Source: a virus | Taxonomy: Duplodnaviria > Caudoviricetes | DNA length: 64,000 bases | IMG/VR virus record: IMGVR_UViG_3300014205_000170 | Location: 416,001 to 480,000 of that record | Strand: one strand, 5' to 3' | Shown here: piece after piece, positions 7,570 through 57,170 of the stretch | How the letters are laid out: the number at the start of each line of letters is the position of its first letter | How positions within the stretch are numbered: position 1 is the first letter of the stretch | Made by a program: the position numbers and the translations under genes | The notes under the pieces: model-generated | The model's database searches: none | The model's input: only the letters and a program-made list of their open reading frames with translations | What the model was told of the DNA's origin: nothing

Positions 7570-8115
7570 GTGATGCAAGGTAGATTGGCACATAAATTTT
7601 CAGAAAGTGAAATGGATTTTCTTTTAAAAAATATTGAAAGAGGAACCATTCTTATTGAAACTGGTAGAATAGATTTATCCATATTTGGTACTTTAGGATT
7701 TGACACAAAAATATTTGATGGTAAACCATATAATTATTTACATAAAATTGCCAATGCCGCAGCAATAGAAACAAAAGAATATAAAAAAGAACAAATAATT
7801 CAATTTATAAAAGAATCTGATGATTTTAGCTTAGAAGGTGGTCATTTTACAGATGATGATTATTATGATTATAAATTAATTACATATAAACACGAAATTG
7901 AATCAGAAGAAATGTATTTGGAAAGATTATTGTCAGAAGGAAGAGAATTAATACGTAAAACCAAAGCCAAATTAGCAAGAGAACGCAGAAAAGAAAAAAG
8001 AAAAGTTTTATGCGAAAAAGCACCAAAAAAATATACGCGCTTAAAACGAACGCCAAGATACCCGGAAATAGAAATACTTCCTTTTGACGATGGTGAAATA
8101 CTTCTGCCGTTCTAA
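7570..8115 (+). CDS. hypothetical protein
   Basis: 181-aa ORF. Confidence 0.65.
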   Translation: MMQGRLAHKFSESEMDFLLKNIERGTILIETGRIDLSIFGTLGFDTKIFDGKPYNYLHKIANAAAIETKEYKKEQIIQFIKESDDFSLEGGHFTDDDYYDYKLITYKHEIESEEMYLERLLSEGRELIRKTKAKLARERRKEKRKVLCEKAPKKYTRLKRTPRYPEIEILPFDDGEILLPF

Positions 8116-9850: not shown

Positions 9851-10426
9851 ATGAAAATAGGCTTGTTTTTCGGTTCATTCAATCCAGTCCATATTGGACA
9901 TATGATAGTGGCAAATTACATGTTGGAATTTACGGATTTGGACGAAGTATGGTTTGTGGTTTCACCACAGAATCCTCTAAAAGATAAGTCAATGTTAATT
10001 GCAGAAGCTGACCGGTTGAATATGGTCAATATTGCAATAGGAATCAACGAAAGAATTAAAGTCAGTAATGTTGAATTTGCATTACCACAACCTTCTTATA
10101 CTATTGATACATTAAATTTATTAAAAACTCAACATCCAAATGATGAATTTGTTTTATTAATGGGAACAGATAATCTGAATGGTATTTATAATTGGAAAGA
10201 ATCCGAAAAAATTCTTAATGATTATAAAATTTATGCTTATTCAAGACCCAACACAAATTCTAATATTGTGTTTTTAAAACATGAAAATGTTCAAATACTT
10301 AACGCAAATTTAATTGATTTATCCTCTACATTTATACGTCAAGGAATTAAAGACAATAAAGATTTACGTTATATGGTTCCGGCTGGAGTATGGCAATACA
10401 TAAAAGAGAAAAAATTGTATGAGTAA
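9851..10426 (+). CDS. nadD: nicotinate-nucleotide adenylyltransferase
   Basis: FGSFNPVHIGH, SPQNPLK, PSYTIDT, GTDN, SSTFIR. Confidence 0.92.
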   Translation: MKIGLFFGSFNPVHIGHMIVANYMLEFTDLDEVWFVVSPQNPLKDKSMLIAEADRLNMVNIAIGINERIKVSNVEFALPQPSYTIDTLNLLKTQHPNDEFVLLMGTDNLNGIYNWKESEKILNDYKIYAYSRPNTNSNIVFLKHENVQILNANLIDLSSTFIRQGIKDNKDLRYMVPAGVWQYIKEKKLYE

Positions 10427-11042
10427 AGAGTTTTTTACACAATATAATCAATCAAAAAATGACATTTACTTAACTAAGAAATTTGCGAATTTTTTAGTAT
10501 GTAGAAGTGATTTAGAATTGGCAAATAAAAAAACGACTTATGCAGGAAAACCAAGATATCAATATGAAAATATTTTTTTATATCCTTTTAGCATTGAGGT
10601 GGATTTTACTTTAAATGAACGTTATACTTTAAAAGAAAAAGAACGTTTATGTATTCTTACTAAAGGGAAAACTGTACATTTGATTGGAGTATATTCACAA
10701 CTTAAATGTAAGCATGGATGTCCTTCTAAAAGTTGTGCTGGTGGTGATTTTTTAACTGCCCAAAAAATTTTAAAAAAACAAAAAGGTCTTAGGGGTAATA
10801 TAGGAGATTTATTTTATTCTTTATCTGATAAAAAGTTATTTGATTTTTTTGAAACCAGAGGTTATAAATCAAAATTTAAGATTAAAACTCAACCGGATAG
10901 AATATCGTTTACAAAAAGAATTTATAATGATTCGCAAGCAAATAAAGTATATGATGATTTATATGATTTTGATACACAATACTCTCCTACTGGTAACTCC
11001 ACAAGGTTTGTTTTGATAGAAAAACAAGAAAAAGAGTTTTAA
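10419..11042 (+). CDS. hypothetical protein with C-terminal TRFVLIEK motif
   Basis: 207-aa ORF overlapping the nadD stop. Confidence 0.65.
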   Translation: MSKEFFTQYNQSKNDIYLTKKFANFLVCRSDLELANKKTTYAGKPRYQYENIFLYPFSIEVDFTLNERYTLKEKERLCILTKGKTVHLIGVYSQLKCKHGCPSKSCAGGDFLTAQKILKKQKGLRGNIGDLFYSLSDKKLFDFFETRGYKSKFKIKTQPDRISFTKRIYNDSQANKVYDDLYDFDTQYSPTGNSTRFVLIEKQEKEF

Positions 11043-15525: not shown

Positions 15526-15576
15526 ATTGTATTAAATAGGGTTTAAAAGCATCTTTTTAGAGCTATTTATCTTCAA

Positions 15577-16089: not shown

Positions 16090-16123
16090 TTGACTTTTAA
16101 CTATAAAAAGTTTTAATTTACAC

Positions 16124-16528
16124 ATGCCTATTTCATTTTTTCCTCCAACACAAAACAATAATTCTCTTGCTGATAAATGGGCATCCTCTGGATTATTAGA
16201 TGGATTACATACTACTACTAATACTAATATTGCTTCTTTATTAGAAAGCCAAGCAAGTCAACTTTTATATTACGAAGAACCTGAAAATATATATACACGA
16301 ATAGTTATTTTTGAAAAGTATAAAAAATATAAAGTATATAGAAATTCTAATTCTAGTTTTGAAAGTGTAGGCATACCAATGGTTAGAAGAGTTTTTTCTC
16401 AAATGATTGCTCAAGACCTCGTATCCGTACAACCACTAGCAGCACCAACCGGTACTTTATTTTTTTTCGATGAAATCGAACGCGAAAACGTGTATAAGAA
16501 AAGGGTATTAATTGAAAAGGATATTTAA
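16124..16528 (+). CDS. major-capsid (gp23-like) N-terminal fragment protein with RxVIxEK inserts
   Basis: KWASSGLLDGL..LLESQA..PMVRRVF..DLVSVQPLAAPTGTLFFFD. Confidence 0.75.
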   Translation: MPISFFPPTQNNNSLADKWASSGLLDGLHTTTNTNIASLLESQASQLLYYEEPENIYTRIVIFEKYKKYKVYRNSNSSFESVGIPMVRRVFSQMIAQDLVSVQPLAAPTGTLFFFDEIERENVYKKRVLIEKDI

Positions 16529-16729
16529 ATGATAACACCACAAATAAATTTTGGTTTAGATTGGAAATATAATCTATGGGGACACCAAACTAATGTTTAT
16601 TCTAGAATTGTTATTGTAGAAAAGATTAAAAAGAATATCTTTATATCTCCTGGTGTTTACACTATAGAACTTGATGTAGATTATATTGATGCTACTATGT
16701 ATAATGTATTTATTGATTTTGAGCAATGA
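16529..16729 (+). CDS. small protein with tail-sheath N-terminal motif and RxVIxEK
   Basis: YSRIVIVEK followed by FISPGVYTIELD. Confidence 0.6.
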   Translation: MITPQINFGLDWKYNLWGHQTNVYSRIVIVEKIKKNIFISPGVYTIELDVDYIDATMYNVFIDFEQ

Positions 16730-16968
16730 TAAAATCTTTGGCTAAAAATATACTTCAATCTCAGTTGATAAATCTTCTTGGAAAAGAATTTGAAATCAGC
16801 AGTATTAGTGATATGTATATCACTAATCATGATGAACATACTAGATATGTGATTATGGAAAAGTATCCTGAAAAAGAAAATGGTAATTCAATCATCAATG
16901 TTAATGTTGAAATAAAAAGACCAGCAACTTATATAAAAACTTCTTTTCAAATAGAACAAATTGATTAA
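16726..16968 (+). CDS. small protein with RxVIxEK and sheath C-terminal-like strand
   Basis: TRYVIMEKY; INVNVEIKRPATYIKTSFQI. Confidence 0.55.
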   Translation: MIKSLAKNILQSQLINLLGKEFEISSISDMYITNHDEHTRYVIMEKYPEKENGNSIINVNVEIKRPATYIKTSFQIEQID

Positions 16969-17363
16969 TGCTACGACTAGGAAAGCCTATAACAATTGCA
17001 ACACAAATAGTTGAAACTACTGCCTCAATTATCTTTAAAAATGAAGAAATTATTATAACAAAAATTGATGAGAAATCATTTGGTCACTTTTTTAAAAAAC
17101 GTACAATTCAGAATGAACATGTGTGGTCGATATATTATTTAGAAGATTATGAGTATTTTAATTTATCAAGAACGCGAACAATATTAATTGAAAAATATCA
17201 AAAAAAAGGTCATTTATATTGGCATTATGACTTTTATGAACCGGTTCAACTCATAGGTAAAGGTTCTGAATTGGATGGATATGAAGAAATGTTTAGTGAA
17301 TTATTAGAAAGAAACAGCATTTTTACTCCGGAAACCACTTTAATTCTAAAAAGAACTTTATAA
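16968..17363 (+). CDS. hypothetical protein with TRTILIEKY motif
   Basis: translationally coupled to the upstream ORF. Confidence 0.6.
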   Translation: MLRLGKPITIATQIVETTASIIFKNEEIIITKIDEKSFGHFFKKRTIQNEHVWSIYYLEDYEYFNLSRTRTILIEKYQKKGHLYWHYDFYEPVQLIGKGSELDGYEEMFSELLERNSIFTPETTLILKRTL

Positions 17364-55953: not shown

Positions 55954-56509
55954 AAGTTATAAAAAACACATTTACTGTCTCGAAGGTAATTGGCAAAAAG
56001 ATTTAAGAAAAAAATCTAGCGTAGATTCTTCATTAATGTTTCTTGAAAAAAATTGTGATATCAAACACATACATAAGCACTGTGGAACTAAAGAAACTGT
56101 ATTTTATTATCTTGATATATGGAAGTATAAAAAGTATTCCAATTATTCGATTTGTTATTTAGCATTTCATGGTTTTGAAGGTGAGATAACAGTTGGAAGA
56201 GATACTGTTAGTTTAGAAGAAATGGCTGATTCTCTAGAAGGCGCTTGTAAAGATAAAATAATATTTTTTGGTAGTTGTTTAGTTTTACAAGTAGATAGAG
56301 CTAGGATAAATAGTTTTTTAGAAAAAACCGGAGCACTTTGTATTTGTGGTTATAAAGTTTCTGTTGATTTCTTATCAAGTTCAGTATTTGAGATGTTAGT
56401 GATAAACATGTTGCAGAACTATAAAGATATTTCTTGTGTTCAAAGAGACATTAATCTTTATTATAGTACTCTAGCAAAAGAATTGGAATTTAAAATTTAT
56501 ACTTTGTAA
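55940..56509 (+). CDS. DUF6642-like caspase/CHAT-fold protein
   Basis: CLEGNW, YLAFHG, FFGSC, GY...VD. Confidence 0.65.
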   Translation: MKIAKSYKKHIYCLEGNWQKDLRKKSSVDSSLMFLEKNCDIKHIHKHCGTKETVFYYLDIWKYKKYSNYSICYLAFHGFEGEITVGRDTVSLEEMADSLEGACKDKIIFFGSCLVLQVDRARINSFLEKTGALCICGYKVSVDFLSSSVFEMLVINMLQNYKDISCVQRDINLYYSTLAKELEFKIYTL

Positions 56510-57170
56510 TTTTTTTTTCAATTATTACTTTTCTTTTACCATCAAAAGAATCGGTCCAGTATTCCATAATTCCATCACCATTCATAAAAAAATCCTCTTT
56601 TAGATTATTTAAATCTGTTGTGGTAATTATAAATTTACTTTTATTTGAAGTGGGATTAAAACAACACATAAAAGATTGAATTAAGTCATCGTAATTATCA
56701 TTAAAACCTAATTCGGAAATATAAATAAAATCAAGTAAATAACCTCTCCCAGCATCGCGTTGTTTTTTTGTCCAATACTGTATTTTGGAATGATTAGAAA
56801 ATTCTGTGAATTTTTGATTGTGTTTTTCTGGAGTAAGAATTGTATTTTCTAAACCTTGTGAATGGAATATCTGTTCTAAAACATGTAAGTTTCCATTAAT
56901 TAATTGTCTTAAAGTTTGAATTTCTTGATGTGAACTTGCTATAACTCCTACTTTAAATTTTGGATTTACAATGACTTTCCACAAAATATATAAAGACATT
57001 GCAAAACTTACTCCTTCTTGTCTTTGTTTATAAACAATGGTATATTTATTTTTTTCCAAAAAGGAAAGAAAATTTCTTTGTGCCAATGATAAACGAATGA
57101 AATTTGACTCTTCTACTAAAGAATGATTTAAGGAAACATCTAATAATTTACAAAAATCATGAAATTCCAT
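56490..57170 (-). CDS. truncated terminase large-subunit ATPase-like protein
   Basis: Q..FL, KQRQEGVS, GRGY.LDFIYISE, IITT; C-terminal KRKVIIEK; no nuclease domain. Confidence 0.65.
   Translation of the reverse strand: MEFHDFCKLLDVSLNHSLVEESNFIRLSLAQRNFLSFLEKNKYTIVYKQRQEGVSFAMSLYILWKVIVNPKFKVGVIASSHQEIQTLRQLINGNLHVLEQIFHSQGLENTILTPEKHNQKFTEFSNHSKIQYWTKKQRDAGRGYLLDFIYISELGFNDNYDDLIQSFMCCFNPTSNKSKFIITTTDLNNLKEDFFMNGDGIMEYWTDSFDGKRKVIIEKKITKYKF

Follow-up and report, generated by a model that had tools for sequence, protein, structure and literature searches.

What connects four small consecutive genes of a large tailed phage, some of them resembling pieces of its own virion proteins, and what might they do? 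The locus occupies positions 16124–17363 of the window, by which we mean the whole 64,000-nt stretch of DNA analysed here (bases 416001–480000 of a virus record that is complete at 518,809 bp and has terminal repeats); positions are those of the window unless given as genome positions. A preliminary description had read it as an operon of mini-proteins, built from capsid and sheath fragments on a common docking strand and used as decoys for immune sensors or as poisons of competing phages' assembly.

Open reading frames (856 genome-wide) were called with a simple in-house caller. The major capsid protein was of the gp23 type, and the nearest cultured phage shares only 35% identity. The phage is T4-like, with a genome of ~519 kb, and we infer a host in the phylum Bacteroidota, because of the affinity of its GlnRS (54–58% identity to enzymes of Flavobacteriia and other Bacteroidota) and because its genome encodes a T9SS-tail protein and contains TAnnTTTG promoters. 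Elsewhere the genome encodes two adjoining sigma-70-like factors (L016; genome 305507 and 306453) which by eye resemble the Bacteroidota primary sigma factor, about ten aminoacyl-tRNA synthetases (genome 82898–347359 and 450770), three class II paralogues consisting of the catalytic domain only (genome 91905, 421064 and 490322) and, by eye, NAD salvage genes. The window also holds a tRNA-like cluster at 11.5–14 kb and a gene for a 545-aa protein with a serine-rich leader at its start (325–1962).

Genes of the locus and their virion-protein homologies

The features of the locus are listed below; "tag" denotes the shared seven-residue motif.

15563–15570, + strand: late-type element CTATTTAT belonging to gene 15577, which precedes the operon and is untagged
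16090–16121, + strand: promoter-like element, a TTGA[CT]TTT box followed by an AT-rich TTTG box just 5' of the start codon
16124–16528, + strand: capsid N-terminal remnant of 134 aa with two tags
16298–16318, + strand: internal tag of 16124, located where orthologues have a basic amphipathic helix
16499–16519, + strand: C-terminal tag of 16124, a K-variant, with V, E and K invariant in 10 orthologues
16529–16729, + strand: 66-aa protein with a tag (16604–16624) and a tail-sheath N-terminal motif (16637–16675)
16726–16968, + strand: 80-aa protein with a central tag (16843–16863); sheath homology not supported
16968–17363, + strand: 131-aa tagged protein (tag 17175–17195) of no known family, with orthologues in L149 and L153

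Both promoter-like boxes were found upstream of the 16124 orthologue in 8/8 loci and differed from the late element of gene 15577. By resemblance the element may be a promoter of the Bacteroidota sigma-A type; a generic sigma-70 scan, whose sites were no commoner than in shuffled sequences, did not list it. No terminator was found between gene 15577 and the operon, and read-through from that gene is possible.

The 16124 product corresponds to residues 19–107 of the phage's own major capsid protein (aligned over residues 29–107 at 42% identity, E 4e-22), the intact gene of which lies at genome 355857, and also matched PHROG138 (E 2e-10). It is a gp23 homologue by sequence, with 134 of 519 residues and an incomplete HK97 fold. 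Its first capsid block (aa 19–48) is probably the cleaved propeptide and its second (aa 79–116) probably the equivalent of the Gol region, which we take it to be from its position and sequence pattern. A 19-residue insert in the alignment to the capsid protein holds the motif. Orthologues (P0002–P0009, P0011 and L379) retain both capsid blocks and the flanking tags; in nine of them a basic amphipathic helix separates the blocks, and one triplicates the first capsid helix. Here an apparent copy of the C-terminal tagged segment takes the place of the tag and helix that orthologues have on the N-terminal side, and the internal tag looks like a duplicate of that segment. The only structural model of the protein was of low confidence (pLDDT 52, no confident fold) and drew the internal tag as a helix, which does not bear out a docking strand.

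The 16529 family matched the sheath N-terminus over 20 columns (HH probability 95%, E 2e-8), and the motif was closer still in its orthologues. The C-terminal sheath strand proposed for 16726 was rejected, with a BLOSUM score below the shuffle mean and an HH probability of 0.4%. The central tag was the only invariant block in the 16726 family (7 orthologues), and its position was likewise central and invariant in that of 16968. For 16968 no structural-gene match was found, and an atlas search returned only unnamed or chance-level matches. Homology to virion proteins was thus confirmed for the capsid blocks and the sheath start motif, and failed for 16726.

All four genes have syntenic orthologues, with 16529, 16726 and 16968 neighbouring 16124. 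Pairwise dN/dS was 0.14–0.76 in all pairs from the families of 16124, 16726 and 16968, which indicates purifying selection; synonymous sites were close to saturated. Locus searches with 16124, 15577 and 17430 gave no matches. Relatives carry a DNA cytosine methyltransferase between the positions of 16726 and 16968 (L091:11188–12057, L093, L149, L153 and L379), which is absent here.

A lineage-specific peptide in a quarter of the proteome

Roughly one in four of the phage's proteins bears the tag, [RK]-x-V-L-x-E-K. Genome-wide, its strict pattern gave 123 matches against 1.05 expected, and an iterated profile marked 211/856 ORFs (~4 by chance), covering 16% of the genome; a few of these matches (PrsW, a glycosylase and two long proteins) are probably due to chance. 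The window contained 10 copies (shuffle mean 0.48, maximum 3): nine, together with the four ORFs of the locus, stood where the preliminary description had placed them, and the tenth lay in ORF 7570. The tagged ORFs of the window outside the locus were:

7570–8115, + strand: 181-aa tagged ORF, absent from the preliminary description
10419–11042, + strand: 207-aa ORF with a C-terminal tag (11004–11024) and orthologues in L091, L093 and L379
53916–54308, − strand: 130-aa capsid remnant with two tags, matching residues 275–323 of the phage's own capsid protein (49%)
56490–57170, − strand: 226-aa terminase ATPase-domain paralogue with a C-terminal tag and a tagged orthologue in L155

An unbiased single-position scan found R (115) or K (27) at position 1, then, after a free position, V/I, L/I and a hydrophobic residue or T. 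The following E (115 cases) was replaced by no other residue twice and by essentially no D, the final K (115 cases) was replaced by F in 2 cases and by essentially no R, and the spacing was fixed. Codons inside the motif were used as in the genome at large and synonymous codons varied freely; selection therefore acts on the peptide, and a DNA-level repeat was rejected. The tag was kept in 50/53 orthologue pairs, with its E identical in 47/56 and its K in 51/56 against 40% elsewhere, in proteins that diverge faster than the untagged ones (39.5% versus 59% identity).

Placement was free, at either terminus, internally or in an inserted loop: 82 of 215 tags lay ≤15 residues from the C-terminus and 58 near the N-terminus, the remainder being internal. 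Tagged proteins were short (median 122 aa) and slightly basic, rarely had membrane segments (6/211 versus 66/481, p = 5e-6) and were mostly encoded in abutting operons. Tags were found in 2/96 small genes at genome 1–40000 and in 30/54 at 500–519 kb; compared with other small genes, the tagged ones showed no excess of 'early' genes (p = 0.38). At operon heads (n = 29) the host-type TAnnTTTG promoter preceded 11/29 and the late element 3/29, the latter being present in 24/62 core genes, and 0/6 genes bearing late leaders were tagged. A T9SS C-terminal domain signal was rejected, given position-free tags and 0 Por_Secre_tail matches among 209 tagged proteins. Tandem arrays of hypervariable, SH3-like-looking paralogues of 65–125 aa with the tag at the end were seen at genome 227015–229596, 240292–241973 and 505168–508939, where the motif may possibly have originated as the last beta-strand.

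Approximately 90% of tagged proteins matched no known family. Profile searches recovered three capsid pieces (one of them at genome 308534), two tail-tube paralogues, and terminase and prohead protease remnants; with the sheath motif as the eighth, virion-gene remnants were detectable in only ~8 tagged proteins. The terminase paralogue 56490 is devoid of the nuclease domain and has SE in place of DE in Walker B. Further tube- and helicase-like tagged ORFs suggested by eye were not confirmed by follow-up comparison. Two tagged proteins passed Pfam cut-offs as homologues of Acb3 (PF25187, E 6e-37) and Tad3 (PF25185, E 3e-27), families which bind CBASS and Thoeris enzymes, respectively. The tag is C-terminal in the Tad3 homologue; in the Acb3 homologue it lies within a 25-residue loop insertion, found in three clade members and absent from a Vibrio-phage homologue. 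Another tagged protein has a UVR motif, as does the phage's ClpC-type ATPase. Tags on the Acb3 and Tad3 homologues favour the link to immunity made by the preliminary description, whereas its small capsid and sheath decoy operon dissolves into a sample of four from a tagged set of ~210.

Contigs of the same clade were dense in tags, and every tag-rich contig recovered by scanning the collection was orthologous to this genome. Relatives with 68–82% capsid identity share the head genes and late leaders of this phage and had 0–3 copies of the motif per 220–390 kb, that is, no tag. De novo motif searches of six other large phages gave no comparable internal tag; three jumbo phages with the AAA+/M41 protease family described below, searched in this way, likewise showed none. 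An unrelated large phage (G014, L241–L249) has expanded motifs of its own, an N-terminal MKYLKTY-like one (~20 proteins) and R..RK.K..R.

Candidate readers and competing explanations

The tag is thus under selection at the protein level, has spread within one lineage until roughly one protein in four carries it, and is freely placed. It is very probably a short linear docking motif read by a single partner, and its carriers may well have a cytoplasmic bait or adaptor role. Because their recognisable cargoes either bind immune enzymes or derive from proteins known to trigger immunity, we read tagged proteins as a bait joined to a handle, that is, as putative two-part adaptors in which the variable part would bind and the tag would be the constant part. 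Virion proteins beyond the Gol–Lit pair also trigger immunity. Remnants of capsid, sheath, tube, terminase and prohead protease would bind partners of the intact proteins, whether immune sensors or assembly partners; the Acb3 and Tad3 homologues would bind CBASS and Thoeris enzymes, and the SH3-like and Zn-finger arrays would be diversified binders. With ~90% of carriers belonging to no known family, the binder role is largely assumed. The tag would couple each complex to one cytoplasmic reader, which would remove or sequester it, and the genes at 16124–17363 would be four members of this set.

We tentatively prefer this explanation, in which bait or binder modules with a docking tag would couple their partners to one reader in the cytoplasm; an ATP-dependent protease, such as the phage's soluble AAA+/M41 enzyme or host Clp, is the most plausible candidate. 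That the reader is a protease at all is, taken separately, somewhat doubtful. More doubtful is the full version, a modular system of targeted degradation in which ~200 fast-evolving binders, among them disarmed copies of the phage's own immune-triggering virion proteins and CBASS and Thoeris inhibitors, would deliver defence proteins to an ATP-dependent protease through one 7-residue handle. Several points count against the preferred explanation: an adaptor with a degron would itself be consumed, the strictness at E and K would suit the active site of an enzyme no less than a docking groove, and 'early' genes are not overrepresented among the tagged ones.

The AAA+/M41 protein (L025:17673–19691, genome 484139) is a soluble fusion of a ClpB-D2-like ATPase and an M41 protease with an inserted domain and with Walker A and HEAGH intact. 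It belongs to a large, uncharacterised family of jumbo phages (1881 matches, 72 viral loci), has about two dozen close orthologues in the clade, where it is near-core, lies in loci that bear tags and has no counterpart in five capsid relatives devoid of them; it was rejected as a diagnostic marker, as many jumbo phages have the family without the tag. The genome also encodes a ClpC-type ATPase near DnaJ (L010:34–2052, genome 173917), with a UVR middle domain and apparently no N-terminal domain, and an intact SET-domain lysine methyltransferase (L015:19431–19952, genome 290277); no ClpP motif was found in the phage genome. When a tag peptide of 32 residues was co-folded with AAA+/M41 residues 1–465 and with GroEL residues 2–500, a chain without beta-18, the strand with which a GroEL mimic would pair, the outcome was no answer (0.00), which is evidence neither way.

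The foremost alternative, though itself unlikely, is a second capsid-loading signal akin to the T4 capsid targeting sequence (CTS), by which tagged proteins would be head-packed and injected as a mix of decoys and inhibitors, perhaps with prohead protease cutting after L-x-E. It would suit small, slightly basic carriers poor in membrane segments, and the tag does contain [LI]-x-E, the gp21-type cleavage consensus, placed in 16124 orthologues where the capsid propeptide carries its own L-x-E. T4 internal proteins, too, are diverse defence inhibitors with only the targeting sequence in common (PMC3012670). Such a signal is hard to reconcile with tags that are often internal or loop-inserted, with a hydrophobic Acb3 homologue tagged in three genomes, with mostly host-type promoters and untagged late leader-bearing genes, and with the head genes and late leaders shared by tag-less relatives; moreover, L-x-E near late-gene starts (only 11 sites) showed no preference for the K that is invariant in the tag. 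Also quite improbable is a role of the tag as a degron or timer acting on its own carriers, by which toxic early proteins would be cleared and the cargo functions would be independent of the tag. The preference for termini and the phage-encoded AAA+/M41 and ClpC-type ATPases speak for a self-degron, and the invariant central position in the 16726 and 16968 families, the Acb3 loop insertion, the double tags flanking capsid remnants and the nearly tag-free earliest 40 kb speak against it.

A modification site, for example for lysine methylation by the SET-domain protein, is distinctly improbable: R does not replace K, and the SET protein, which keeps its catalytic and post-SET motifs, had no match in tag-less relatives, but with only four close orthologues (62–66%) against about two dozen for AAA+/M41 it looks accessory in the clade. 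Mimicry of GroEL strand beta-2 (residues 36–42), a strand that pairs with the adjacent subunit, by which the tag would tether cargo to the host chaperonin or block its assembly, we regard as very unlikely. Bacteroidota GroEL strands did score 16.8, 9.1 and 9.1 on the tag profile, R36 of the strand bridges to E518 of the neighbouring subunit (PMC8292379), and the phage encodes neither GroEL nor GroES. Two other Bacteroidota, however, scored just 6.3 and 5.5; GroEL needs N37 and tolerates S/G where the tag has its invariant E, L is favoured in the tag at a position that is V/I in GroEL, assembled rings already have this site occupied, and a chance match to a single well-known hub is not unlikely. 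There is similarly little chance that the remnants are dominant-negative subunits which poison the assembly of competing related phages, as the preliminary description had also envisaged: their sources are all oligomeric assembly proteins, and fragments are more similar to a capsid the closer it is to this lineage (Spearman 0.65), but their match to the phage's own capsid is as good as to those of relatives, so that they would hit self, and this covers <5% of tagged proteins and neither Acb3 nor Tad3. That the tagged genes are pseudogene debris evolving neutrally, or the tag a repeat at the level of DNA, is extremely unlikely; the divergence of tagged proteins and the poor folding of the capsid remnant would fit it, whereas frames and tags are conserved over saturated synonymous distance, with dN/dS <1 and freely varying synonymous codons.

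Comparison with known systems

Whatever its identity, the reader of the tag would organise the largest unexplained part of a megaphage genome, in which about a quarter of the proteome, nearly all ORFans, bears one peptide. Since homologues of Acb3 and Tad3 bear the tag, the remaining 200 carriers can be ranked as candidate anti-defence proteins, and the segments retained from virion proteins suggest which epitopes Bacteroidota sensors or assembly partners recognise. The portions of the literature that we covered on motifs shared in megaphages, on short linear motifs of jumbo phages and on truncated capsid decoys and anti-defence adaptors did not describe the tag or such a system. The tag is not placed as a T4 CTS would be, and no phage system described in the literature covered matches it; our confidence in the mechanism is modest.

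T4 Gol, a region of gp23, binds EF-Tu and triggers Lit (PMC3014915). No part of gp23 is better conserved, and retention of the corresponding region in 16124 therefore need not mean a decoy. The tagged Acb3 homologue, for its part, differs from that of an unrelated phage by the added tag.

One close likeness is to the T4 CTS on IPI–III, where one short conserved peptide is likewise carried by diverse small anti-defence proteins and its pattern ends in hydrophobic-x-Glu (PMC3012670). Unlike the T4 CTS, which is N-terminal, removed on maturation and confined to a handful of proteins, the tag is position-free (only 58/215 copies near the N-terminus, and loop-inserted in Acb3), occurs in ~210 proteins, and is 7 residues long with an invariant Lys after the Glu. 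If the preferred explanation holds, the set resembles SPO1 Gp53, a phage adaptor of host ClpCP, in redirecting an ATP-dependent protease (PMC6873191). Gp53 differs in being a single protein with no common motif, as opposed to a proteome-wide modular set with a putative reader. Compared with protease adaptors generally, target binding is supported by homology only for Acb3, Tad3, the UVR protein and the virion remnants; candidate proteases are phage-encoded, and binding by the constant module is putative. Poxvirus ankyrin/F-box (PRANC) and BC-box adaptors also join a variable binder to a constant short recruiting motif, and the set is likewise expanded in a large virus genome. They serve eukaryotic ubiquitin ligases and derive from one repeat family, in contrast to the unrelated folds and own-gene remnants seen here; modular degradation, if true, would be a bacterial-virus counterpart of viral F-box families.
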